Positions 3,340 to 64,000 of a stretch of 64,000 nt of DNA are shown here, piece after piece. Source of the stretch: a virus; IMG/VR virus record IMGVR_UViG_3300015371_000029, positions 2,438 through 66,437 of that record; one strand, written 5' to 3'. The stretch's first letter is position 1. Each line of letters starts with the position of its first letter. A program made the translations under genes and the position numbers. The notes under the pieces were generated by a model. The model was not told where the DNA came from, ran no database searches, and saw only the letters and a list, made by a program, of their open reading frames with translations.

Positions 3340-3525
3340 CTACATTGAGACCTTCTTCACCGAGATGACGAAGGCCCCTTCAGGGAAGAACGCGGTGACG
3401 CACGGTCGCAGTTCTCCATTCACGAGTTCTTGATCGAGACTCGTGAGGTCGGCTGTCGCAGTAGCCTTCTCGTTGCCGAGCAGCCTCTGCTCCAACCACA
3501 TGGCGAACTCCTCTGCCGTCATCAT
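3340..3525 (-). CDS. hypothetical protein
   Basis: Overlaps stop of the upstream gene; stop abuts a leader element. Confidence 0.6.
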   Translation of the reverse strand: MMTAEEFAMWLEQRLLGNEKATATADLTSLDQELVNGELRPCVTAFFPEGAFVISVKKVSM

Positions 3526-3980
3526 CCCCAGCGTCTCCGGAATGCCCGGAACTGGAACTCGCGACGCATCAGCGTCGCAGCATCTTCATCGACCTTTTCG
3601 TACAGGTCTCCGACGAGCGCCATGACTTCGAGTTCCTGCCCGACATTCGCCTCGGCGATGGCCCGTCTCTGGACTGACGTTGGACGACTGCGAACGAACT
3701 CGCGACCGAACTCCGTCAACTCCCAGAAGCCGGTCTTGCCGGCGATCTTGTCGATCACGCCCATCCGTCGCATGTACGCGAAGCGGATGGCTACGCAGTG
3801 ACGAGCATGCCAGGCCGTGTCTTCATCGCTCGCCGCCTTCGGCCAGATCGTCTCAGCGACTCTCTGGATGTCAACTTCTCCGTCGCGATTCTGAAGATCG
3901 TTGACGATGGCGAGTAGCTCGCGGTCACTGAAGTCCGTGATCCGTAGGCTGATGCTGCCGTTGTTACTTCCACGGGGCAT
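3522..3980 (-). CDS. probable winged-helix DNA-binding protein
   Basis: RFAYMRRMGVIDK...GFWELTEFGREF wing-like motif. Confidence 0.55.
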   Translation of the reverse strand: MPRGSNNGSISLRITDFSDRELLAIVNDLQNRDGEVDIQRVAETIWPKAASDEDTAWHARHCVAIRFAYMRRMGVIDKIAGKTGFWELTEFGREFVRSRPTSVQRRAIAEANVGQELEVMALVGDLYEKVDEDAATLMRREFQFRAFRRRWG

Positions 3981-14467: not shown

Positions 14468-14556
14468 GTTGTACCCTCCTGTTGAAGATGGCTCGGTGCG
14501 GGATGCACCGGGGAGCCTTCCCGTTGTACTTAGCTGCGGGAAGGCAACCGCTGCAT

Positions 14557-14676
14557 CTAGGCGTTGAAGCCGAGCGCGAGCAAGACTCGCTTGATGAACG
14601 ATGTCCTGGGCTTCGGCGCGTCGAGCATCATCATCTCGGCGTGCGTCATTCGGGACGAATCGTACCAACTCGCCAT
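14557..14676 (-). CDS. 39-aa hypothetical protein (not in ORF track)
   Basis: MASWYDSSRMTHAEMMMLDAPKPRTSFIKRVLLALGFNA between two leader elements, with RBS. Confidence 0.5.
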   Translation of the reverse strand: MASWYDSSRMTHAEMMMLDAPKPRTSFIKRVLLALGFNA

Positions 14677-14743
14677 GAGTACCCTCCTTGTGTTCGGCAA
14701 TCGGATGATTACCGGGAGCATCCCCCTTTCGGGGGATGACCCG

Positions 14744-15136
14744 CTACTCGTCCGAGAACTTGTGTTTCGGGCAACGATGAACCCGTAGGCCGTCGATGCT
14801 CTTCGTCATGATCGCCTTTTCGTTGCACTTGGGGGAAGTGATGATCCGGAGCTGGTAGAACGATCCGGCGGGGCCGGATGCGGTGGTCTTGCCTCGGCGC
14901 TTCTTGAGGTAGACGATCTCCAACTCGCCGGTCTCCGGATCCGGGATGTGCGCTCCGCATGTCGGATTGTCGGGGACGTTGTTGCGGTCGGTCTGTTGAA
15001 TCCGCCTCGGCGGGCCGAATTGGAGTTGTTCCTTGTGCGGGACGGCGAAGCGCGCGGCGGCGGTTGCGCGTCCGTTGTGGACGAGCTTCTTGCCTCCGCG
15101 AGCTTTCCGCGCCTTGCGGCGTTGAGATCCGCTCAT
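14744..15136 (-). CDS. basic hypothetical protein, first gene of the leftward array
   Basis: RBS AAGGAGGGTACAAAATG. Confidence 0.65.
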   Translation of the reverse strand: MSGSQRRKARKARGGKKLVHNGRATAAARFAVPHKEQLQFGPPRRIQQTDRNNVPDNPTCGAHIPDPETGELEIVYLKKRRGKTTASGPAGSFYQLRIITSPKCNEKAIMTKSIDGLRVHRCPKHKFSDE

Positions 15137-16054
15137 TTTGTACCCTCCTTGTAGAAACGGCTTTGGGGCGACTCGCGCTCCGATAGGGGTCGCGCGGCTA
15201 CGTTGATCAGACGCTTATTGGCGGCGCGGCCCCTACCGGAGCGCCCGACGGCCATTTCTAGCTCGCATCGGGCGTCCGGTAGCCATTAGGAGGGGGTACC
15301 ATTTTAACGAAGACTTCGTGATGAAAAGCTTTACAACGTTCGCCGTAATCCTCTCGATTGACTTTTTCGTTCCCTACTTGCCGGAATCCCCGGATTGGAG
15401 TAAGTCTCTCCGGTTGAGGCGTTCGGTTGCGGTAAGGCGTTCCGCTCTACTAACGGTCGGCCCCGGTCGCCCGATGATTTTCGGTCGCGTTACGGACTAT
15501 GCTCGTAACTTGGTCTCCGTCCCGATTCGGTCGTCGGGAAGGGCTATTGCGGCCCCTAGTTATAGCCCGAGATCGTTGCCGAATTACTCTTGATCCCGTC
15601 GGTATCGCCGCCCGGCCTCCTTTCAAGCTACCGATCCCGGCGCGAACTTGCGGAGATGTCCCCGTAGTTTCGCGTCTATCCGGTCGGCTCTTGATCGGCC
15701 TAAAGGCTAGCGTCCCGCTCCGTTCCAACCGCCTCGGGGGTTCCGGTAGTCGCGTTCCCGATTGTTAAGTTGCTTCGGGTCGGCGCTCCGGCCTTCCGGA
15801 CGGGTTGCCCTCGACTCGCGAGGGAGGCCCGTTGAGGCCCGCTTCCCTCGGCTCCGTCCGTTTCCGGCGTTGCTCCGAGGGGCGCTCCCTCCCGCTAGCT
15901 CGCGAATCGGAGGGAGCTAGCGGCGAAGCCGTCCGCGCCTTCGACAACCGCGCTTCTAGCTCCGCTAGAAGCGTAACGTCTCACAACTGTTGATAGTTGA
16001 TAAAAGTACGGAAATAGCGGGTTTTTTCTTTTCCCGCTATTAGCGAACTTTTTT

Positions 16055-16918
16055 TTACGATGCAAAGAGGGAAAACGGGTAGTTGGAAGATGTGCAAGGC
16101 GTTCTAAGGCGGTTTCGGGGGTTCGGGGTAGCTAGGGCGGTTTAAGGGGATTCTAGGCGATGTACGGGCCTTACACAAAGCCGGAGAGGTATTATCAAGT
16201 AGGGGGTTCGGGGGTTCGGGGGTAGGGACGATAGGGGCCGTGTCGAGTTGATTCAGGATTTCGGGTAGTTGGAGGGGATTTTCGGGTCGATTGAGGGGGT
16301 TCGTAGCTTACGCTGGGGTGGGTTGTGCAGACCGGGGATTGAAAACCCCTGGTAATCGGCACTGGGTTGTGGGAAGTGGAATTGAGCGTGTCGAATTGTG
16401 TGTAGGTTTGATGGCGAAATGGGGGCATAAATGGGGGCATAAACCCGTGTTTCTGCGTTGCTTTGCGATGAAATGCCCCGTGCACAAAGTTTTTCGTGGA
16501 AAAGTTGAGTTGCAGGGGGCCGTTTTTTGTAACTTAGCTTGACCTGTTTTGCCGCCAGAAAGTTGGCCAAAGACCAGCGTAATCCGATGGTTTTTCGGCC
16601 TGAAAGTTGAAATGAGTTGATCCAGCGTAATCCGATTCTTTTTATGGGTTGAGTTGCCCGATTTTCGTGCTTACGATGCGTTGAGATGAGTTGGCTGCCC
16701 TAGTGGGCGCGGAGGGCGTGAAAATTGGGTTGCGATGGGCTTACGATGGCCTGAGATGAGATGAGTTGCCGGGGGCCGGGGTGCCGGCGAGGCCGGCATC
16801 GCAACGCAACCCATCGCGCACGCGCGCCCTGACGGGGCCAACGCATCGCATCGCGGGGGCCGCCGAGTGTAGCTTACTGCTCAACCCAATTACCCATCGT
16901 AAATCGCCCCCATCGCAA
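16055..16918. repeat. TTRCGATG motif set in mirror arrangement
   Basis: Forward at 16055, 16463, 16671, 16730, 16741; inverted (CATCGYAA) at 16797, 16895, 16911. Confidence 0.65.
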
Positions 16919-17078
16919 GTCGTCCCAACTCTATTCGAAACAGGTAAGGCCACTATTTGTAAAGATCCCCCTTTCGGGGGGTAGCGGTCGGCCCGGATCG
17001 TCGATACGCTCTAGCTAGCGCGGCGAGCGAAAAGCCGCGCGACGGACGGGGCCGAACCCCGGAGTAGGAGGTAGGAAA

Positions 17079-17447
17079 ATGTCGAAGGATCCCGGAAGCT
17101 ACGCGGCGGTTCGCGCGGCGGTAAAGCGCGGCGAGACGCTAGTCGGGTACGAAAGGGCGAACGGTCTCCGCTCGCTCGCTCCGAAGTACTACGCGGCCGA
17201 AGTAGAGCTAGGTATCGCGGCCGAAATCGCTCCGTCCCTCTTCGCGAAGGACGGGACGCCGAAGACGACGCGTCTCGGCGCGGCGATTCGCTCGGCGCGG
17301 AAGGCGAACGTCCGTTGGTCCCGAATCGCGATCTACCTCGGGATCCCGGAGACTCGCGCTCGGGACCTCGCCGCGAAGGCGGGCTACGAACCGACCTACG
17401 TTGGTCTCGGCCGCCGTTACGGTCTCGAAAACGGGCCGAACGACTAG
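17079..17447 (+). CDS. hypothetical protein with possible C-terminal HTH
   Basis: GGAGGT RBS; VRWSRIAIYLGIPETRARDL; followed by a terminator. Confidence 0.7.
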   Translation: MSKDPGSYAAVRAAVKRGETLVGYERANGLRSLAPKYYAAEVELGIAAEIAPSLFAKDGTPKTTRLGAAIRSARKANVRWSRIAIYLGIPETRARDLAAKAGYEPTYVGLGRRYGLENGPND

Positions 17448-17463
17448 CCCGCGACGAACCGAA

Positions 17464-17494
17464 GGAAAGGCCCGCTACGCGGGCCTTTTCTTTG
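17464..17494 (+). terminator. rho-independent terminator
   Basis: AAAGGCCCGC-TAC-GCGGGCCTTT then TCTTT. Confidence 0.75.
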
Positions 17495-17956
17495 GTCCCG
17501 TACGGATGCGCTGCGTTGCGTTGCGGGACTCCTAAGTTGCGGTGCGGCCCCCGTGCAAGGAAAACCAGTCACAAACCCCGAGCACAACTCCACACGACAC
17601 CCCGAAAAAATTTTCAACTCATCCCAGAATCTGCCGCACAACTTTTACCCCGAAACCCACACGCCCCGAACCGCCGAAAAACGAAAAGCAACTCCACTAA
17701 AACTCTGCTCAACTGCCCACTTCCCCTCTACCCTACGCGCCCGCGCTCCCGGCCGGACGTAGAACAGACTGACTCATGCACATTTTCCTCGTGATCGCGC
17801 GTACGCTACTAATCTCCATAGAGTCAGGGGTCGTATCCGCGCGTGTACGCGTCATCGCGACACACACAGCGCACGCTGCAGCAGCTCCGCCCGCGCGGGA
17901 GGGCGAGACCAGCTATACTAACCCACTTAACAACCTAACACGCCACAGGAGGGAAA

Positions 17957-18247
17957 ATGGGCACCATCACCGTCGTCCACACAAAGGTTCTCACCCTCAC
18001 CTGCACAACTGAGGAGTTCTTCGAGCGGTTCCCCCTAACAAGGGACTACGACAAAGCAACGCTGGAGAAGTTCGCCCTGGGGATCTGGCGCAACGGCGAC
18101 AAGGCCGGCAGGCACAAGGGGCTGTTCGGGAATCTGGTCAAGTCGAACGACTACCGCGCCACAGTAGATCTACCCAACCCCACACCCCGCCGCACCCCTA
18201 AGAAATCCAACACCACACCGAAGCGCAGCGCGCGAAAGCCCCGCTAA
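17957..18247 (+). CDS. hypothetical basic protein
   Basis: AGGAGGG RBS. Confidence 0.6.
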   Translation: MGTITVVHTKVLTLTCTTEEFFERFPLTRDYDKATLEKFALGIWRNGDKAGRHKGLFGNLVKSNDYRATVDLPNPTPRRTPKKSNTTPKRSARKPR

Positions 18248-18345
18248 CGGTTCACTTTTCGCGCCAACTCCGAACACGTTAGAATACCCCTAGCTCGAAA
18301 ACCATTTGAACACCGCCACACACCACACACCCACGGGAGCTAAAC

Positions 18346-18525
18346 ATGAGTACAATCCTAGCAATAGAGACGAGTACATCGCGGCAGGAGATACCCGGCC
18401 GCTACCAGGTTGTAGAAGACGACAACCTAGTCGAGGAGACGATGAAGCTCCTCACGGCGCTCAAAGTCCTTCAGGAACGGGTCGAGAAGAAGATCGCATT
18501 TGAGGAGCGGGGGCTGAACTTTTGA
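18346..18525 (+). CDS. 59-aa hypothetical protein
   Basis: MSTILAIETS...; stop overlaps the next TTG. Confidence 0.5.
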   Translation: MSTILAIETSTSRQEIPGRYQVVEDDNLVEETMKLLTALKVLQERVEKKIAFEERGLNF

Positions 18526-26341: not shown

Positions 26342-28081
26342 ATGCCGTACGAGCTGAAGAAGAGTGGCGGCCAGTACTGCGTCTACAAGAAGGGCGACAG
26401 CAGCCCTGTGCCCGGTGGCTGCCACGCAACCCGCAAGGAGGCGGTCGCTCACATGCGCGCTCTCTACGTCAATGTCGAGGGATCGCTGTCTGATCCTCCG
26501 GCGACCATGGAGGATGCGCAGGTGATTGCCGACAACAACGGCTGGGCGCTGGAGAAGATCGACGGCACAGCGTTTTGGCGGCTGAAGAATGTCCCGATTG
26601 CTTCAACCGGAATCGAGTACGCTCTCTCAACTGGTAAGCACACGTTTACGCCAGAGGATCTGGCCGATGCTGTAGCTGCGCAGGAGGATCCAGCAATTGT
26701 ACAGCCTCGCATCTGGCTCGGGCACACGGATCCTCGGTTCAACGGTGACGGGGAGCCAGCACTCGGCCGTGTTGAGGCGATGCGGCTCTCCGAGGATGGG
26801 AACACGATCCTCGGAGACTACGTGGGGTTGCCGGAATGGCTCGCGAAGATCATGCCGGTGGCCTATCCCAGCCGCTCCATCGAAGGGCAGGTCAATGCCA
26901 AGACGGTGACAGGGAAGCAGTACGGTCTCGTCATCACTGCAGTCAAGCAGCTCGGCATCGTCTGGCCCGGAATCAGCACGCTGGAAGACATCCCGGTGCT
27001 CCTCAGCTCTCAGGGGCCGAAGGATGTCAAGATCGAAGCCGCGAAAGGAGGTACGTTGGACATAGCGGCAGAGGTCAACGTCGAGGATGTTCGCCGGGCG
27101 TTCTACGATGAGCTGCAGGCCCAGGAGGATCCGAACAAGAAGTGGTGGTGGATCAGGGTTCAGCAGGTCGTCAGCGGCAAGGGGCAGTTGATCGTGGACG
27201 ATGACAATGGCCAGCTCTACCGGGTCGAATACTCGGTCTCGGGCGAAAAGATCAAATTCGCCGATCCGGTGCCAGTCAAGATCCAGTACCAGGATCAGCC
27301 AGCCGACTCGATGGCTGCTGCTGCCGCTGTCATCGCCGGCATCTGCGCGGTAGACGATGTCCCAAAGATCGTCTATGCGTCGCGGGAAGAGTCGTTGATC
27401 GCAGACGACAAGGAAGCAACATCAACATCAACGGAAGGGGTGGAGATGGACGAGGCGACTCGGAAGTTCCTTGCCGCCAAGTTCGGCCTGGCGGAGGATG
27501 CCAGCGAGCAGGAGATCGAAGGCATTCTCGCCGGAGTCGGCAACGGCAAGCCAAAGGACGTGAAGGCAGAGACGGAGACGCCGCCCGACGCCGACGACGG
27601 CGACGAGGACGACGGCAACAGCGCCGATGAGGACGAGGAGAGCGAGACAACGCCAGCCTCGACTCCGGCAACGCCGACGGCGGCGCAGGAAGGCGTCGTG
27701 TCGGTCGATGCGGCAACGTGGGAGGAGGTCCGGGCGAATGCGGCGCTTGCCGCGAAGATGAACGAAGACCGGATCGCCGCCGACGACGGACGCATGCTCG
27801 ACGACGCGATCAGGGCCGGCAAGTTCCCACCGTCCCGCAAGGAGCACTACGTCAAGCTCCTGAAGGCAGATCGCGACGGTACCAAGTCGATGATCGAGGG
27901 CCTGAGCCCAGGTCTGATCCCGGTCAGCGAGCGTGGCAACTCCGGAGGCAGCGAGGAGTTGAAGGCGGGCCAGGCAAGCAACGCTGCTGAGGGACTTCCG
28001 GGGGATTGGTTCCCCGAGGTCGCCTCGATCCGCGCAAGGGCCGCTCAGGAGCGGCACGTCTTCCAGGCCAAAGAAGGGTAG
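26342..28081 (+). CDS. capsid maturation protease fused to scaffold
   Basis: Between portal and capsid; IWLGH...AYPSRSIE; acidic scaffold-like C-terminus. Confidence 0.75.
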   Translation: MPYELKKSGGQYCVYKKGDSSPVPGGCHATRKEAVAHMRALYVNVEGSLSDPPATMEDAQVIADNNGWALEKIDGTAFWRLKNVPIASTGIEYALSTGKHTFTPEDLADAVAAQEDPAIVQPRIWLGHTDPRFNGDGEPALGRVEAMRLSEDGNTILGDYVGLPEWLAKIMPVAYPSRSIEGQVNAKTVTGKQYGLVITAVKQLGIVWPGISTLEDIPVLLSSQGPKDVKIEAAKGGTLDIAAEVNVEDVRRAFYDELQAQEDPNKKWWWIRVQQVVSGKGQLIVDDDNGQLYRVEYSVSGEKIKFADPVPVKIQYQDQPADSMAAAAAVIAGICAVDDVPKIVYASREESLIADDKEATSTSTEGVEMDEATRKFLAAKFGLAEDASEQEIEGILAGVGNGKPKDVKAETETPPDADDGDEDDGNSADEDEESETTPASTPATPTAAQEGVVSVDAATWEEVRANAALAAKMNEDRIAADDGRMLDDAIRAGKFPPSRKEHYVKLLKADRDGTKSMIEGLSPGLIPVSERGNSGGSEELKAGQASNAAEGLPGDWFPEVASIRARAAQERHVFQAKEG

Positions 28082-28090
28082 GTGAACTAG

Positions 28091-28519
28091 ATGGCCAACG
28101 ATTGCATTCCGTTCTTCGAGCCAGGGCAGCATCCGACCGGCAAGGCAACCGCTGCAATCACCGGGAAGCGGTTCTTGCAGGTCTCGGGCAATCGCACCGG
28201 TGGCCCGTTGCTCGGAACCAACACCGAGAACCTCTACCAGGTTGCGCAGGCAGGGGCAGCAGGCACTGCCGGCGCCAACCGTGAGGTGATCGGCGTCGCA
28301 GCGTACGACGTGCCCAACGGAGGCACGGTCAAGATCATTCGGGGCGGCATCGTTCCGGTGACTGCCGCCGCTTCGCTGTCGGCGGGCGCTCGCGTCTCGA
28401 CCGACGCCACCGGCCAGGTGATTGCCTACACGGCAACCGCCGGCAACGTCCAGGTCGGCATCCTCATGGCCGACGTCACTTCGGGCAACGACGCAGAAGT
28501 TGCCTTGACGGGATTCTAG
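28091..28519 (+). CDS. capsid decoration/cement protein (DUF2190-like)
   Basis: Gly/Ala-rich, VIGVAAYD, GIVPVTAAASLSAGARV; just upstream of the capsid gene. Confidence 0.75.
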   Translation: MANDCIPFFEPGQHPTGKATAAITGKRFLQVSGNRTGGPLLGTNTENLYQVAQAGAAGTAGANREVIGVAAYDVPNGGTVKIIRGGIVPVTAAASLSAGARVSTDATGQVIAYTATAGNVQVGILMADVTSGNDAEVALTGF

Positions 28520-28531
28520 GAAGGAGGGAAA

Positions 28532-29503
28532 GTGAACAGCAAAAGGATCTTTGTTCCGGAACAGCCGGGGATCATTGCTTCGGATGGGATGATCGCCGCG
28601 CAGACGACGTACCCGAATCCCGTCGCGCATCCTCTCGGCCCGCCCACGATCTCAAGCACGACCTACTCGGTTGACATCGCGCTTCAGCAGCCGACGCGGG
28701 TCACGCGAACGATCATGGACTTGACGATGCAGCGGTTCTTCGCGGATCGCGTCTTCACGAACGCAGGTGGCGTGACCGGCGGCGCGGTGATCTACGACAT
28801 CGCGCTCACGAACGACATCTACCTGGAGCGCGACATCGGCAAGGTCGCCCCCGGCCAGGAGTTCCCGATTGTCACCAGCCTGAGGCGCGCACCCTCGGTG
28901 GCGGCAGTCGAGAAGTGGGGCGGCAAGTTCTTCATCACGGACGAGGCCCGCGACCGCAACGACGTGTCCGTCTACACCCGCCACATCCGGCAGCTCGCCA
29001 ACACCATCGTCCGCAAGATCAATCAGCGGGCGGTCGAGGTTCTGGATGCGGCGGTCTCGACGTACACCCGCACGGTCACGGGCAACAGCTGGGGATCGGT
29101 CGTCACTGCCGGCTCCAGCGCGTCCAATGCGACCGCTTGGCCGGGTCGCGACTTCGCCAAGGCGCAGTACCAGGCCGAGGTCGAGGAGTTGGGGATCGTG
29201 TACGACCTCTGGATCATGAATCCGGCGGAATACCTCAACCTCGCGACGATCTACGGCCAGTACCTCAACGATCTGCTCAGCTCCATCGGCGTCGATGTGT
29301 TCGTCACCAACCGCGTGACGGCTGGTACGGCCTACGTCGTCGCCTCCGGCCAGGTCGGGCAGATGCGCGTCGAGCAGCCGCTGGCCACGGAGACATGGCG
29401 GGACAGCGACGGCCGGCAGCAGACCTGGACGCAGAGCAGCGTTCGCCCGGTCATGTTCGTGGACAACCCGCCCGCAGTCCTCAAGTTCACGGGCCTCACA
29501 TAG
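28532..29503 (+). CDS. major capsid protein
   Basis: 323 aa; VAPGQEFP, KWGGKFFITDEARDRN; position. Confidence 0.85.
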   Translation: MNSKRIFVPEQPGIIASDGMIAAQTTYPNPVAHPLGPPTISSTTYSVDIALQQPTRVTRTIMDLTMQRFFADRVFTNAGGVTGGAVIYDIALTNDIYLERDIGKVAPGQEFPIVTSLRRAPSVAAVEKWGGKFFITDEARDRNDVSVYTRHIRQLANTIVRKINQRAVEVLDAAVSTYTRTVTGNSWGSVVTAGSSASNATAWPGRDFAKAQYQAEVEELGIVYDLWIMNPAEYLNLATIYGQYLNDLLSSIGVDVFVTNRVTAGTAYVVASGQVGQMRVEQPLATETWRDSDGRQQTWTQSSVRPVMFVDNPPAVLKFTGLT

Positions 29504-29515
29504 GAGGGGGTGCAC

Positions 29516-30016
29516 ATGGCATACGAAGTTGCAGAGGAGTTCAAGGGCCAGGAAGGCAAGGGCCGGATCGTCAAGCACCTGATCTTCACCGCGCAGATCG
29601 AAACGGAGAACCCGATGTTCCCCGGCACGAAGATGCGTTCCGAGAGGCTTTACCGCCTCAACGAAGAGGTGCCGGTCGAGGTGCTGGACGACTACAACCT
29701 CTCCAGGGGCGAGTCCCTGGGATCGTTCTACACCGACGAGGAGTTGGAGCAGGGCGTTCCGCAGGCCGCAGCACTGGAGACCGGCGTTGCCCAGATCGCG
29801 GAGGCGGGCAGCGGCGGCGATTTCTCCGAGATGGGGGAGGCCGAGCTGGCCGACTACCTCATCAAGAACAAGCCGACCGTCGATGAGACGGTTCGGATGG
29901 CCGGCAACGACCCGGACACCGCTCAGCGCCTCCTGGAGGCAGAGCACATCGCGACGGAGGACGAGCCTCGGGCTGGAGTCGTCAAGGGACTCAATGCCAT
30001 CATCGAGTCCGAGTGA
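29516..30016 (+). CDS. acidic head-associated protein
   Basis: Follows the capsid gene; C-terminal LLEAE..EPRAGVVKGL. Confidence 0.6.
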   Translation: MAYEVAEEFKGQEGKGRIVKHLIFTAQIETENPMFPGTKMRSERLYRLNEEVPVEVLDDYNLSRGESLGSFYTDEELEQGVPQAAALETGVAQIAEAGSGGDFSEMGEAELADYLIKNKPTVDETVRMAGNDPDTAQRLLEAEHIATEDEPRAGVVKGLNAIIESE

Positions 30017-59843: not shown

Positions 59844-60151
59844 GGTAGCTCACCTGCAACTTCGTACATGATCTCTAGACCGCACATCGCGGCGACGAGA
59901 TGTTCGCAACGAGCACCGGCGCTCCGCTCCCAGCCCTCTAGCATGTAGGCCGCGTCGCAGTCGAGCAGCATACCGATGTCTGCCTTCATGTACTCTTCGT
60001 AGGTCGGCTCTCCTGACTTCTTCAGGATCACGACCTCGCAGGGGTTGACCGGGGTGTAGCCGTTCCGAGCGAGTAGTTCGCAGGCTCGATCAAAGTGAAC
60101 CAGATACTCGGGATAGTCCTTGATGCGTCCGCTGACGTAGATCCGCTTCAT
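59840..60151 (-). CDS. DUF4406 (NDT-like) protein
   Basis: IYVSG..F..GYTPVNP..YMKADIGMLLDCD..GWERSAGARCE. Confidence 0.8.
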   Translation of the reverse strand: MKRIYVSGRIKDYPEYLVHFDRACELLARNGYTPVNPCEVVILKKSGEPTYEEYMKADIGMLLDCDAAYMLEGWERSAGARCEHLVAAMCGLEIMYEVAGELP

Positions 60152-61212
60152 GACGGCCGATCCTCGTCAGTCGTCGTGATGCCGGCCCAGGGGTTCGCGA
60201 GCCATTCCTGGGGCTGAATGCCGTCGAGCATTTCTCCGTCCGGCATGCAGAACGTGCCATCCTCCCAATCGTGGCCGTCCCACTTATCGGGAGGCACGCC
60301 CATTGCCGCGAGAGAATTGACGCGATGACGGATTGAACAACCCCGGTCGAGTTTCCCCATGAAGACGCACTTCCCGGCCTGGTAGCAGACCGGCGTAAAC
60401 GTTTGCGGCAGAGGCTGAGAAACTCTCGCCCACTGCCAAGCGCCGTCGCGCGGGTGGATGCCCAAGGAATCACTCGGGTGCCAATAGGTGCTAACGTGGC
60501 TACGGATCACCTTGACAATCCCGATAGCGACCGAGCGCCATTCGAACTGCGCCTGGGTGCAGAGCCGCTTCCCCATCTCGGTGACGAGGTTGCGAAAGTT
60601 CGTCTTGTAGTTCAGTCGCGTCGTCACGCAATGAGGCAGAAGTCCACGAGCATCCTCGGCAGGAACGCCCATACCGATCAGAGTCTCGTATGCCTGCTCG
60701 GCCTGCTCCAAGCCTTCCAAGAACTTCACGAGCGCATCAGCATCACTCGCGATTGTGGGCGGAATCGCTGCTTCCTGGGCGATGCCACGCTTGACAGCGA
60801 AGCGAAGCGACTCCTGCGCATAGACGGCAGTACGCTGCCTCACCATCTGGTGGGTGAAGGCGCGGGTGACGCCCTCGATGAAGAAGTGGAGATCGATGAA
60901 CTCCCAGGCTGCCTTCAGGTGCGTCCGGAGGGATTCCTCCCAATACTCCACGCGCTCTTCATCCGTGATGTGGCTGAGATCGTAGGTCGGCTTGCCGGCA
61001 TACATCCGGAAGGCCGAAGCGACGACGCCGAGCGGATCCGGTGTCGCACTGAGAAGGAAGACCTGTGGAGTCACGCGCGACTTAGCCTCATCCCTCTTCA
61101 TCGGCGTAGCCTCGAACATCGCTGCGTCGCCGTAATGGATGAGATCCTTGGATTGTTCGTGATCCTGGCGATCAAGGCGGTCGAATGTGTCCTGTTCGCG
61201 TTCGGCGCTCAT
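60148..61212 (-). CDS. thyX: FAD-dependent thymidylate synthase ThyX-like
   Basis: EGVTRAFTHQMVRQR...QESLR; EDARGLLP; RLCTQAQFEWR. Confidence 0.8.
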   Translation of the reverse strand: MSAEREQDTFDRLDRQDHEQSKDLIHYGDAAMFEATPMKRDEAKSRVTPQVFLLSATPDPLGVVASAFRMYAGKPTYDLSHITDEERVEYWEESLRTHLKAAWEFIDLHFFIEGVTRAFTHQMVRQRTAVYAQESLRFAVKRGIAQEAAIPPTIASDADALVKFLEGLEQAEQAYETLIGMGVPAEDARGLLPHCVTTRLNYKTNFRNLVTEMGKRLCTQAQFEWRSVAIGIVKVIRSHVSTYWHPSDSLGIHPRDGAWQWARVSQPLPQTFTPVCYQAGKCVFMGKLDRGCSIRHRVNSLAAMGVPPDKWDGHDWEDGTFCMPDGEMLDGIQPQEWLANPWAGITTTDEDRPS

Positions 61213-61529
61213 AGCTCCCCCTTCAGGATGCGCGCCGCGAAGATCGCGTAGTTGATGATGTCCGGGATCTCTTCCAGGATGTCAATTGCCGGCGGGTCGG
61301 TGCCCTCGCGCTCCGCGTACTCCAGTGCCTGGAAGACCCGCTCGACCTTGATCTTGGCCTGACGGATCTGATCCATGGCGGAGTATTGCTTCCAGAGACC
61401 GTGTCGGATCCGCTCGCGATCCATGTGCACATCGACGGCGTTCTGGACGATCCTTTGGTAGGCCGCTGCGTCTTGAAGGGTGATCGCGTCCTCATCGAAG
61501 TCGAGGACAAAATCTGGCTTTGTACTCAT
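61209..61529 (-). CDS. helical nucleotide-modification-associated / MazG-like protein
   Basis: C-terminal ILEEIPDIINYAIF. Confidence 0.5.
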   Translation of the reverse strand: MSTKPDFVLDFDEDAITLQDAAAYQRIVQNAVDVHMDRERIRHGLWKQYSAMDQIRQAKIKVERVFQALEYAEREGTDPPAIDILEEIPDIINYAIFAARILKGEL

Positions 61530-62299
61530 CGTAGCCTCCTAGCTGTTTCGATCAGGGTTTTGTCGTAGGCATCGTTCAGGAGTACGCCGTGTTTCCATTG
61601 CGCCCAACGACCGACTCGCACCACGTTCGGATGGCAGTCACAATCTGTACTGCCCGCCTTCGTACCCTGCTTTACGTTGAGATCGTCCTGCCAGTCAAGC
61701 GGCGGCTTCGTCGTCTCAATCGAACAGACGCCGCTGAGGATCGACCAGCGGTACCAGTGATCCGCCGGCATCCCGTTGTAGATCACGAGATCCTTGTTAC
61801 GATCAACGTAAGGAACCGGCAGGGTTTGGATCCAGTACGGAGATCCCTCGAAGTTGTGCTCTTCATTCTCGCAGATCTCCTGAGCAGGCAACGTCGTGAT
61901 CACAAGATCGAATAGCTGCTGGATCACGCGCAATTCGTCGGCGTTGATCCAGGTGCTCTCGATCCTGTGCTGATGCTTGTTCCAGGCGCTGTCGTAGGCC
62001 CGGATTACGTTCCAACTCGGATAGAGCGTGCTGTAGGCATCCCAGCCGGTGTTCCTCGTGGCGTCGTCATAGACCTTCTCTGCGTACCCCTCGGCCGTTC
62101 CCATCCTGACGTACTGTACAAGATTGTCGGGGTAGACAGGGCAGAGATCAGGGATCGGCTTGTGCAGATACTGCGAGCCAGGGATGGTTGACTTCACCTT
62201 GCGGCTGAAGATCACCGGCTGGTGTCCCAACGAAGCGACAGCTTCGGCCGCGAACAGGCCCGCAGGCCCGCATCCGAGTATCGCTACTGGCTGACCCAT
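61526..62299 (-). CDS. FAD/NAD-binding oxidoreductase-like protein
   Basis: VAILGCGPAGL Rossmann motif; VGRWAQWKH. Confidence 0.7.
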   Translation of the reverse strand: MGQPVAILGCGPAGLFAAEAVASLGHQPVIFSRKVKSTIPGSQYLHKPIPDLCPVYPDNLVQYVRMGTAEGYAEKVYDDATRNTGWDAYSTLYPSWNVIRAYDSAWNKHQHRIESTWINADELRVIQQLFDLVITTLPAQEICENEEHNFEGSPYWIQTLPVPYVDRNKDLVIYNGMPADHWYRWSILSGVCSIETTKPPLDWQDDLNVKQGTKAGSTDCDCHPNVVRVGRWAQWKHGVLLNDAYDKTLIETARRLR

Positions 62300-62410
62300 T
62301 CGATTTTCAGATCCAGAGCCTCAGTTGTCGGTTCGATCCCCAGAGGCCGCTGTCGAGCAGTTGCTGCGTGCTCATGAGAAGGTTCTCGATCTTCCACCAG
62401 ACGCAGATCT

Positions 62411-62799
62411 TCATTGAACGTCACCACCCTTTTCCGAGTCGAACCTACGATGACAAGGAATGCATAGCTCCCTGTAGTCGTTTGGTCGTCCAGGTACTTC
62501 CCTGAGATGTTTGCGAATTCTGTTCCCGGCTTGATTCTCCCATCCTTGTACCGAAACGATGACGGAGTTGCGCCGCATTCCTCACAAACTCCAGTCCGAA
62601 GCTTGCTCTTGTTTGCACGACGATGTCTAGCTGACTTCGTGGGACTTGGATTTCTGGCCATCAGGGATTTCCGGTGATTCTCAATATGTTGGGGCGTTTT
62701 TGTGATGCCCGAGAGACCCCTGGAAATATTCGCCCGGTGTTCAGCAGTCTTCGGCCTCCCTGTGTGCCCGTGCACCCATATCCCGTTGACTCTTATCAC
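62411..62799 (-). pseudogene. frameshifted NUMOD3/HNH endonuclease
   Basis: KTAEHRANIS, CEECG, EFANISGKYLDD, then DYRELCIPCHRRFD continues in another frame at ~62485. Confidence 0.7.
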
Positions 62800-63077
62800 T
62801 CAAAAACTCCTGTCGCATCAGCCCTTCCCGAAATCACTCCGACCAGGAAGAAATGGAAGAGGAGCGTGTTGATAGCAGGCTCGATCCTCGGATCCATTGC
62901 CTTCCATGCTCGGTCGTGGTGTTTCCTTAGCGTGTTGATTCGATGCTGCAAGAACACGTCGAAGGCATCTCCGTCGATCTCCAGGCTGCGCATCTGCCTC
63001 GGTGCGTCGTTCGCGGAGACGCCGTAGATCATCTGCAACACCCGTTCGGATCGTTCGATTTGCTCTGCACCAATCAC
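62796..63077 (-). CDS. hypothetical protein
   Basis: GTGA coupling. Confidence 0.55.
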   Translation of the reverse strand: MIGAEQIERSERVLQMIYGVSANDAPRQMRSLEIDGDAFDVFLQHRINTLRKHHDRAWKAMDPRIEPAINTLLFHFFLVGVISGRADATGVFE

Positions 63078-64000
63078 CAGCTTCTCTCCCGCAAAAGTTT
63101 GTGTAGCGTAGGCTCCACGCGGATCGTGCCCTGAGACATTCGGAGCATCCCCGCGCTGAACAGTTTGTTGATGATCCCGTTGGCCTCCTCTCTTGAGACA
63201 TTAAGGATACCTTCCAAGTCCTGCCGCACGAACCCGCCGTTGCTCTTGATGAAGCGGGCTAGCTCGCGGTTCGATTGAAGATAGGTTCGTATGTCGCCTT
63301 CGAAAGACTGCGCCCTGCTCCGGATTGATAGCAGCTCCTGAGAACGTTCCGCGTAGCCGAAGACTGCCATTCCGTACAGATGATCAAGCATCCGTACCGC
63401 ATCCCGAACGTGTTTGGCATTGATGATGACCTTCTCGTGGTTCGCATCGGTGCTGAATGTCCGGGCGGCGAGAGCTGCCGAGATCCGCGCAATCTTGAAG
63501 CGAACATCGGCTGCCTGAATCAACGGCGGATCCTCGATGTAGCGACCTCCCATTTCGACCGCCGACTTCAGGATCATCTGTTCCGCTCCTGGCGTCCAGA
63601 CAATCTGGTCGGTCTTCCGCGTCCAGGCCCACATCAGGAGCGTATGACAGGCCTCCGACGTGTAACGTAGCTGGCCGATGTCCTGGATCTTGTTGATCCT
63701 CGTGGACTCTACGTCATCAATCGCCATCGCCATCACGAGATCGAAGCGGGCAATATCCTCGTTGTTCCCGATTAGCGGCGGTAGTGCCTGAACGCCGTAG
63801 GTGAAGTCGTTCATCTTCGCGTTCCTCGGGTTGCTGAGCCAAAGCTGCCGAGTACGGGCAGGCGTAACTTCCTGCTGGATCTTGGTCAGGCGCGCCACGC
63901 CGCTCGTACGAACGTCTGACATCTTGGAGATGTCGTCGCAGCTAAGCCCGCTTACCTCATCGATCACGATCAGCCGCCGGTCGTTCAATGGAACGAGACC
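63074..64000 (-). CDS. MCM-like AAA+ helicase (5' end outside the window)
   Basis: Walker B LIVIDE, ARTRQLWLSNP, arginine-finger ARFDL, C-terminal winged helix. Confidence 0.7.
   Translation of the reverse strand, partial: GLVPLNDRRLIVIDEVSGLSCDDISKMSDVRTSGVARLTKIQQEVTPARTRQLWLSNPRNAKMNDFTYGVQALPPLIGNNEDIARFDLVMAMAIDDVESTRINKIQDIGQLRYTSEACHTLLMWAWTRKTDQIVWTPGAEQMILKSAVEMGGRYIEDPPLIQAADVRFKIARISAALAARTFSTDANHEKVIINAKHVRDAVRMLDHLYGMAVFGYAERSQELLSIRSRAQSFEGDIRTYLQSNRELARFIKSNGGFVRQDLEGILNVSREEANGIINKLFSAGMLRMSQGTIRVEPTLHKLLRERSW

Follow-up and report, generated by a model that had tools for sequence, protein, structure and literature searches.

In the 64,000-nt stretch of DNA analysed here (the window; bases 2438–66437 of a single 66,437-nt contig of a soil phage, IMG/VR record IMGVR_UViG_3300015371_000029), the trinucleotides CAG, CTG, CAC and GTG, that is, the duplex word CAS/STG (S, C or G), are missing from two islands. 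Island 1 (15319–15981) is non-coding and lies inside a 2.6-kb hub that separates two divergent gene arms; island 2 (16952–17510, + strand), in the same hub, encloses a small gene. A word is excluded here at the level of the duplex, by selection or something equivalent, and the exclusion covers self-contained hub cassettes in several lineages, whichever gene lies inside.

The free interval of island 1 runs from a GTG at 15318 to a CAC at 15982, a spacing of 664 nt. In the whole window, CAG, CTG, CAC and GTG occur 4,069 times (1237+1159+875+798), or one per 15.7 nt. An earlier note, made from the sequence alone, had reported that none of the four words occurs in 15321–15981, where about 40 would be expected. 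The count is indeed 0, and the expectation is 42 by the window frequencies and 47 by the local base composition (A 90, C 216, G 191, T 164), which gives a Poisson probability of ~3e-21 for finding none. On its + strand, island 1 contains little A (13.6%) and much TTG, CG and TA. The same note placed the remaining TG and CA only in TTG, ATG, CAA and CAT, and this also agrees with the counts: there are 20 TG (16 TTG and 4 ATG) and 4 CA, all of them in CAA and none in CAT. Over island 1, local composition predicts 77 CA+TG, and 25 were observed. The strand symmetry claimed there was confirmed for CAS/STG; it does not extend to CAW/WTG (W, A or T), with 4 CA against 20 TG on the + strand.

The genome-wide check proposed in the earlier note showed the depletion to be both significant and local. 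When the 66,437-nt genome was shuffled 200 times with its dinucleotides preserved, the longest gap had a mean of 119 nt and a maximum of 183 nt. Exactly one other gap of more than 131 nt exists genome-wide, namely 16951–17511 (560 nt), which corresponds to island 2 and lies ~1 kb from island 1. As a guard against multiple testing, free runs were determined for all 10 dinucleotide steps and all 32 complementary trinucleotide pairs. CA/TG was the sole outlying step of the 10, with a free run of 236 nt, or 28.6 times its mean spacing (13.6 times for the next step), and the trinucleotide pairs leading by gap length were all CA/TG-containing words, all in the hub. It should be noted that the CAS/STG-poor zone is wider than first described. 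It begins 60 nt within the first leftward gene, at 15077, stops at the border of the hub core, at 16174, and contains 5 internal CAS/STG where ~70 are expected, with successive gaps of 131, 110, 664, (5), 105 and 82 nt.

Based on base-step composition, the observed/expected ratios in island 1 were 0.14 for CA, 0.42 for TG, 1.44 for CG and 1.26 for TA; in island 2 they were 0.03, 0.20, 1.65 and 1.47, respectively, and in the whole window 1.03, 0.97, 1.15 and 0.59. The 559 nt of island 2 contain 0 CA, 6 TG, 99 CG and 24 TA. When the gene-type islands of this phage and its relatives were pooled (n = 7, 4,553 nt), the ratios were 0.012 for CAG/CTG, 0.042 for CAC/GTG, 0.185 for CAA/TTG and 0.175 for CAT/ATG. 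For the pooled non-coding islands of the island 1 type (n = 3, 1,753 nt), they were 0.03, 0.016, 1.35 and 0.69. The strict excluded word is therefore duplex CAS/STG, which is precisely the set of four given in the earlier note, and CAW/WTG forms a weaker second tier, depleted ~5-fold in the gene-holding islands, which gain CG and TA. Both CAS and STG are absent from the sense strand, in coding and non-coding islands alike, and the sense-strand survivors are almost only forced codons (Met, Trp and His). The islands have a GC content of 0.58–0.70, which equals or exceeds that of the genome; CTAG is enriched about five-fold over its genome level, and no convincing over-represented motif common to the islands was found. 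The earlier note had taken the gap as a sign of selection on double-stranded DNA, such as escape from restriction. A selected constraint on a duplex word, rather than chance, is upheld, but classical restriction escape is not: the excluded word has only 2–3 bp, and 4-bp and 6-bp palindromes without CA/TG are at or above expectation in the islands (22 observed versus 9.4 expected for the 6-bp ones).

Evidence for selection comes from the genes enclosed by the islands. Proteins were held fixed and their codons were redrawn 2000 times from 15 confident genes of the phage. Five homologous island genes contain 3–6 CA+TG versus 30–34 expected, with a minimum of 17–21 over the 2000 draws; for the 122-aa open reading frame (ORF) of the window the values are 3 observed, 30.5 expected and a minimum of 17. 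The homologous island genes have a synonymous divergence (pS) of 0.19–0.51 with dN/dS of 0.27–0.48 (10 pairs), so synonymous changes have accumulated in them and the word has not arisen. None of the five homologous proteins contains Gln or Cys, and His occurs 0–1 times in each. In the relative L009, a 184-codon ORF (3352–3906, equivalent to ~26,617–27,171 of G001) lacks any in-frame ATG, GTG, TTG or CTG. An ATC at its codon 20, five nt after GGAAAGG, aligns with the ATG of the 38%-identical homologue in L008, which suggests a non-canonical AUC start forced by the exclusion of TG.

To assess conservation, 80 viral-contig loci with related portal genes were examined for CAS/STG-free gaps of at least 400 nt. 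Such gaps were found in 6 of the 80 loci, which derive from four contigs and one near-duplicate; none was found in the other 74, nor in 8 loci of bacterial genomes whose portals are related. In bacteria, the nearest portal relatives show 36–48% identity and belong to Actinomycetota and one Chloroflexi bin. The 122-aa ORF has 12 homologues beyond itself, with 44–74% identity, and the depleted zone around the gene recurs in four soil contigs that carry such homologues (L002–L005; L004 and L005 resemble each other closely). Together with the window (W), these contigs constitute family A. Family B comprises the islands of L008 and L009, whose genes share 38% identity and have no detectable similarity to family A. 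In L023, the gene of family C is encoded on the opposite strand; a 68% homologue of it occurs in L105. The exclusion thus surrounds three gene families without detected mutual similarity. Family A had no relative in the searched viral contigs or bacterial genomes, and scans of the viral contigs with families B and C returned only their own contigs. The non-coding islands are island 1 of the window, L008 1–434 and G002 62083–62628, the last being a geneless divergent intergenic region that is TA-rich and not CG-rich. Among five whole related records, islands occur only at the hub: two records have islands, one has a partial island and two have none.

The gene-type islands are similarly delimited. 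A strong hairpin (z −3.5 to −5.6) stands at the 3′ end of each of the six that were tested. The strict free interval takes in this hairpin in five of the six; the exception is L023, where one CAG intervenes between stop codon and hairpin and leaves the latter just outside. Hairpin-closed ends were found in one of the three non-coding islands. The A-family islands begin within a few tens of nucleotides of a conserved TTTGTAAAGAT element.

Several further observations concern the relatives. The G002 island (L020 972–1524, reversed) contains repeated CCTAAG, GTAAACG and TAGCCTAACTAG words and 70 TA in 553 nt; CTAAGG-type words are also present in the hubs of the window (16100 and 17528) and of L009. 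L029 together with L023/L104/L105 makes up one viral contig of 129,757 nt, in which two ~83% identical genomes are joined head-to-tail. This contig starts and ends inside islands, its internal junction is also at an island, and conservation is higher in the island stretch (93% over 264 nt) than elsewhere.

In the window, island 2 appears from its sequence to be an autonomous unit that has a promoter-like element at one end and a terminator at the other and encodes a small helix-turn-helix (HTH) regulator, and its limits are those of this small transcription unit. It consists of the TTTGTAAAGAT element, a small hairpin, AGGAGG, a 122-codon ORF and an 18-bp hairpin that runs into TTTTCTTT. The TTTGTAAAGAT element (16956–16966, + strand) is a candidate extended −10-type promoter; it is followed by a C5-TTTC-G5 hairpin and is kept in relatives. 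In an alignment of five upstream regions (A2), the window, L004 and L005 share TTTGTAAAGATCCCCC..GGGGG, and L003 has two copies of TTGTAAAGA; the sequence TTTGTAA is one of the few places in A-family islands where a TG remains. The ribosome-binding site AGGAGG (17066–17071, + strand) stands 7 nt 5′ of the ATG, and equivalent GGAGG/AGGAG elements precede the starts of the homologues. The ORF (17079–17447, + strand) encodes a basic, all-helical protein with a C-terminal HTH-like part; Gln, His and Cys are missing from it, and its codons include neither CTG nor GTG. In the predicted terminator (17458–17496, + strand), the stem GGCCCGC/GCGGGCC is extended to 18 bp and its 3′ arm runs into TTTTCTTT. 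As in intrinsic terminators, the hairpin is GC-rich and followed immediately by a T run; the fold has −39 kcal/mol (z −5.6), although a simple consensus terminator scan did not list it. The first CTG appears at 17511, 15 nt beyond the hairpin. The terminator is bidirectional and stands between island 2 and the right array. A 27-nt imperfect inverted repeat brackets the island, with its left arm, which has a GCAACGCAAC core, at 16789–16815 and its right arm at 17505–17531 (81–89% complementary; I3/I8). CGCAA/TTGCG runs flank island 2 directly as an inverted repeat.

The AlphaFold model of the 122-aa protein (pLDDT 84) has seven helices. Residues 56–110 superpose on many HTH domains with Z of 4–5.5 (VIA-align), a range that is generic for small helical domains; the structural neighbours include the mycobacteriophage A2 repressor (Z 5.5), VirB/ParB/KorB, sigma region 4 and LuxR. 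Foldseek found no match in the PDB at E ≤ 0.001, and the sequence gave no Pfam match at E ≤ 0.1 and no PHROG match at E ≤ 1e-5. In the protein Atlas, the feature score of 0.87 to HTH_58 clusters is below trust level, as is an ECF-sigma-like lead. Judging by the model, the protein may reasonably be regarded as a small DNA-binding regulator.

Island 1 is a hairpin-rich untranslated stretch situated between the core of the hub and the first leftward gene. It shows no codon-position GC periodicity and no convincing ORF, and its three ORFs have no PHROG match. Neither a periodicity of TTG nor similarity of island 1 to any other locus was found. Both strands fold more stably than shuffles (z −2.9 and −2.5). 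A perfect 11-bp hairpin (15950–15974, + strand) closes the island, and the first CAC follows 8 nt downstream; the fold of 15940–15990 has −19.8 kcal/mol (z −5.1), and none of 200 shuffles was equally stable. Island 1 may belong to the leftward operon as its leader or may be a non-coding unit read rightward, the promoter predictions being too weak to choose.

Islands 1 and 2 bracket a repeat-rich core between the divergent gene arms. Read from the left, the hub consists of the start of the leftward gene at 15136, the CAS/STG-poor zone, the core, island 2 and a mirror array. The core (16175–16950) has a normal CAS/STG density, a G/T-rich + strand (GC skew +0.26) and many short direct repeats. 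These repeats (families D1–D17) include GAGTTG spaced 37/37/75 nt, GCTTACGATG, CCAGCGTAATCCGAT and CGCAA runs; GAGTTG is found at 16245, 16507, 16614, 16651, 16688 and 16763. The core also contains one weak sigma-70-like match, TTGAGT-17-TACGAT, at 16649 (+), and a G-quadruplex-type run (G5-TTC-G5-TTC-G5-TA-G3; 16202–16227, + strand) that is repeated from 16111–16128 (D2/D17). C-rich mirror words of this run are located at 17646–17679. The C/A-rich array at 17540–17740 mirrors the core with CAACTC and CCCCGAA words; CAACTC occurs at 17585, 17615 and 17689, and the inverted repeats I6, I9, I14 and I19 pair with 16113–16515. Such an arrangement, GAGTTG arrays on the left and CAACTC arrays on the right of a gene island, is found in the window (16245–16768/17585–17694) and in L003 (209–826). 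Arrays of this type are also present in L008 (765–1041) and in L009 (2834–3190), where they are tandem TTGNN pentamers. They are kept across relatives with only 57–59% portal identity.

Based on the above results, the explanation that we favour, with somewhat less than even confidence, is selected target avoidance: the earliest cassette would be kept free of sites for a factor with a specificity of 2–3 nt. Purifying selection on the duplex sequence would keep the hub islands CAS/STG-free, and around genes it would also largely remove CAW/WTG, with CG and TA taking over. A nucleic-acid-targeting factor would cut, modify or block DNA, or the transcription bubble, at CA:TG, preferring CAS. The leading candidate for it would be a host defence, as the earlier note had itself proposed. 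A first-transcribed cassette without sites could still be expressed while other DNA is affected, and RNA polymerase could cross the unit while other DNA is blocked; the cassette would then be the earliest expressed, and its product would relieve or outrun the attack. With an information content of only 2–3 nt, the word fits single-strand or base-pair-step enzymes rather than classical restriction, and deaminases, ADP-ribosyltransferases, low-specificity nickases and step-specific ligands are fitting kinds of factor. The 3′ hairpins and the promoter-like element of the A family point to DNA that is expressed first at least as much as DNA that enters first. That the island limits are the limits of a transcription unit makes sense in these terms, since what would count is the passage of RNA polymerase through this one unit.

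Several points weigh against target avoidance. It presupposes a hypothetical factor with CAS/STG or CA:TG specificity, and protection of 0.6 kb would help only if the attack is reversible or if the remaining genome is absent or protected later. There is no sign in the contig or its relatives of a genome end at the hub or of its entering ahead of other DNA: no terminal repeat was found in the 66,437-nt contig, the 127-bp end overlap of G001 lies far from its hub, and although several other contigs break less than 1 kb from islands, the repeats could equally cause the breaks. The island protein, as modelled, resembles a DNA-binding regulator and no known anti-defence protein. Islands 1 and 2 obey different rules, CAW/WTG in island 1 being at or above expectation. 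The leftward genes behind island 1 have a normal CAS/STG density, so that a site-free leader alone would not protect their transcription. Finally, two of the five complete relatives (G004 and G005) have no island.

A more specific form of target avoidance is rather doubtful. In it, an undescribed factor of soil bacteria or phages would read a single CA:TG step, most strongly CAS, on transcribed DNA, and phages would answer with "stealth cassettes". The factor might be a co-transcriptional deaminase, an ADP-ribosyltransferase, a nickase or a step-specific DNA ligand, and a stealth cassette would be a promoter-to-terminator unit recoded in its amino acids, and even in its start codon, until no target is left. 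Blockade of early infection by an anthracycline or another step-specific intercalator from soil Streptomyces was also considered and set aside, because daunorubicin is described in the literature as preferring the CpG step and the islands are CpG-rich; older footprinting work reportedly pointed to a CA preference.

Of the explanations that do without target avoidance, the strongest, though still unlikely, is autogenous insulation. A regulator, either the HTH protein of the island or another phage protein, would read a short TG/CA half-site packed in the flanking arrays, and the islands would be free of partial sites so that the protein, a filament or a roadblock never occupies its own gene or leader. 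The islands do abut dense opposed arrays, TG-rich on the left and CA-rich on the right (W, L003, L005, L008 and L009), whose words (GAGTTG/CAACTC and the TTGNN and CGCAA pentamers) carry TG/CA. The coincidence of island limits with a transcription unit is also consistent with insulation, as are the HTH neighbours, a phage immunity repressor and the spreading or sliding proteins ParB/KorB, at a generic Z of ~5. However, site-specific HTH proteins read at least 10 bp, which gives no reason to purge CAS/STG over 0.6–1.1 kb. Moreover, island 1 is full of TTG (16 copies), a word common to the arrays; the islands lie around three gene families without detected similarity and are geneless in G002, where the repeats inside the island (CCTAAG and GTAAACG) lack CA/TG. 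The closest known parallel is the immunity repressor of cluster A mycobacteriophages, which binds many oriented "stoperators" (13-bp sites) that block elongation. It is likewise a small HTH protein, and it is the best structural neighbour of the C-terminal domain of the island ORF (Z 5.5). The island ORF nevertheless shares no sequence family with it, the Z is generic, and 13-bp stoperators give no reason for the exclusion of a trinucleotide.

A constraint acting on RNA is improbable. Transcripts lacking CA/UG or CAS/SUG would resist an endoribonuclease or another RNA reader, such as a host toxin or a phage shut-off RNase, and the symmetry would arise by transcription of both strands or from two RNA words. 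That motif-free mRNAs escape sequence-specific mRNA interferases is a known idea. The gene-type islands close at terminator-like hairpins, and those of the A family start near a promoter-like element. The + strand is stricter for CA (4 and 0 copies in islands 1 and 2 of the window) than for TG (20 and 6), and the arrays on both sides point toward island 2, so that convergent transcription is conceivable. However, escape from an endoribonuclease would deplete the sense strand only, and both CAS and STG are essentially absent from it. A single duplex word covers the two, but an RNA reader would need two unrelated words or proven antisense transcription. The bidirectional terminator between island 2 and the right array, and the G002 island, which is a non-coding divergent intergenic region, also argue against it.

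Slightly less probable still is a link to replication, in which the word would be the initiation trinucleotide 5′-STG-3′ of a primase on either template strand and the core would be an origin with priming-free flanks. Primases are among the few enzymes known to read 3-nt words; the information content is right, and both strands are affected. The hub is situated where the gene arms diverge, it adjoins the minimum of the cumulative GC skew, and its core is rich in paired repeats and thus origin-like. A DnaE-type polymerase and no primase were recognised among the scanned ORFs; the phage may accordingly depend on a host primase. On the other side, a 0.6–1.1-kb unprimable zone has no known benefit, and the CAS/STG density of the core is normal, not raised. 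The loss of CAW/WTG in gene-type islands and limits that track terminators would also be left unexplained.

Mutation bias is a little less probable again. A context-specific local mutator, for example transcription-coupled deamination at CA:TG on exposed single strands, would erode CA/TG to CG or TA in the hub of every lineage, with no selection needed. Both CG and TA, each one transition away from CA/TG, are enriched (TA at 1.26–1.47 versus 0.59 genome-wide). The depletion is confined to the hub where the gene arms start and where heavy early transcription may be assumed, and dinucleotide footprints of deaminases are known in animal viruses. However, near-total absence at pS up to 0.5 would need a rate that swamps ordinary mutation in every lineage. 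The fall in GC and the coding decay of hypermutation are not seen: GC is raised (0.58–0.70) rather than lowered as by C-to-T hypermutation, and the proteins are under purifying selection (dN/dS 0.27–0.48 over the 10 pairs). The limits are sharp, within ~15 nt of hairpins, and the Met, Trp and His codons that the proteins require are still there. Chance, local base composition or an assembly artefact has practically no probability left, because the A-poverty of island 1, while it lowers the expectation for CA, still leaves 47 CAS/STG and 77 CA+TG predicted against 0 and 25, the shuffles never exceed 183 nt, an independent metagenome contig and contigs of four public runs carry this stretch in identical form, and the same exclusion is seen again in other assemblies.

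Among described systems, phage T5 comes close. EcoRI and CRISPR-Cas act only on its first-step-transfer (pre-early) region. As is proposed here, a short early-acting part of the genome alone matters for target sites, and in both phages repeat-rich untranslated DNA adjoins it. The T5 region differs in being the mapped first-entering end and in having ordinary 6-bp or guide-defined targets; in the present phage the word has 2–3 bp, and the exclusion is total over 0.55–1.1 kb, including the choice of codons and amino acids. A second parallel is Murciavirus (Autographiviridae), in which a motif absent from the leading region is reported to give escape from the Type I system Mme2I; leading early regions are said there to carry counter-defence genes often. 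In Murciavirus, as is proposed for the present phage, a local rather than genome-wide absence of a defence motif decides the outcome, but Murciavirus lacks a specific bipartite Type I site of an identified host system, whereas restriction-type palindromes are not avoided in our islands. The local and strand-symmetric absence of a word that would be expected in first-acting DNA is found here, the 664- and 560-nt gaps occurring only at the hub.

Strand-symmetric loss of a short duplex word by selection is also known from the genome-wide avoidance of palindromes by phages, which concerns 4–6-bp sites. In this phage, the genome-wide observed/expected ratios of CA/TG are 1.03/0.97, the loss affecting only the two islands. 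Selection against a 2-nt context by a host reader of minimal specificity is exemplified by the depletion of TC by APOBEC3 and of CpG by ZAP, but these cases are eukaryotic, and the depletion is partial and genome- or gene-wide. We know of no bacterial reader of CA:TG. The islands recall vertebrate CpG islands in being CpG-rich and TpG/CpA-poor, and fungal repeat-induced point mutation (RIP) in the loss of CpA/TpG and gain of TpA. They differ in that the bulk CG ratio is 1.15, with normal bulk TG/CA and hence no loss of bulk CpG to TpG/CpA, and in that GC rises and coding capacity is kept. As the G002 island is TA-rich with only moderate CG, the feature common to the islands is the absence of CA/TG and not CpG richness.

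At the level of abstracts, the literature contained no account of phage genomes with islands free of a trinucleotide or dinucleotide; the nearest reports deal with leading regions and longer motifs. Restriction and CRISPR targets of 5–8 bp are known to be avoided locally in early phage DNA; here, the word has 2–3 bp. Its exclusion is complete over 0.55–1.1 kb, is kept in diverged phages around mutually dissimilar gene families, and is strong enough to strip Gln, Cys and most His from the proteins and, apparently, to turn ATG into ATC in one relative. So strong a constraint implies a reader of very low specificity, so far undescribed, which could be a defence, a take-over tool of the phage or a regulatory principle, and there is a real chance that it is something new. 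The islands provide a clean handle for finding such a reader, and their signature can be searched by computer in any virome.

As regards the phage itself, Pfam and PHROG scans of the contig revealed genes for the large terminase, portal, head protease, scaffold, tail sheath, tape measure, baseplate and fibre proteins and an amidase endolysin. This gene content, including the tail sheath, tape measure and baseplate, identifies a contractile-tailed phage. The contig also encodes a DnaE-type polymerase, ThyX, an HU-like protein and an HNH endonuclease. Neither a primase nor a replicative helicase could be recognised in the scanned ORFs. DNA modification was also considered as an explanation, but no methyltransferase, glycosyltransferase or deazaguanine gene was found among the 71 distinct window ORFs scanned with Pfam; many of these ORFs have no assignment and may include one. 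The phage is present in rhizosphere metagenome runs; the contigs from the four public runs are short and of low depth, show no molecule ends and no joints in the hub, and break at the G5TTC repeat. Searches of a phage collection gave no DNA match to the hub, none to the island ORF and no close relative of the phage (portal identity ≤43%).

Genes to the left of ~15.1 kb are located on the − strand and those to the right of ~17.8 kb on the + strand. The first gene of the leftward arm (14744–15136, − strand) encodes a protein of 130 aa without a Pfam or PHROG match and is preceded by AAGGAGGG. No Rfam match at gathering score was obtained over 14500–18500, and a consensus promoter scan gave 0 sites, with one or two weak candidates under relaxed rules.

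Some minor observations were made elsewhere in the window. In the GC-rich head-gene region, 3 kb (26646–29650) contain no TAA/TTA and have long ATA/TAT and AAA/TTT gaps; this seems to reflect the usual composition and codon bias of such genes and not another type of island. Near the contig junction, a 304-aa ORF (63074–63988, − strand) has a Walker-B-like IVIDEVS motif and matches only the C-terminal third of a 1,028-position PHROG profile without known function. Beside thyX (60148–61212), a 257-aa protein (61526–62299, − strand) carries an N-terminal GxGxxG Rossmann motif, with weak matches to Pyr_redox_2/HI0933 (E ~0.01–0.02), and matches a PHROG without known function. Together with a DUF4406 gene and a weak deoxyribosyltransferase-like ORF, it belongs to a nucleotide-metabolism cluster.

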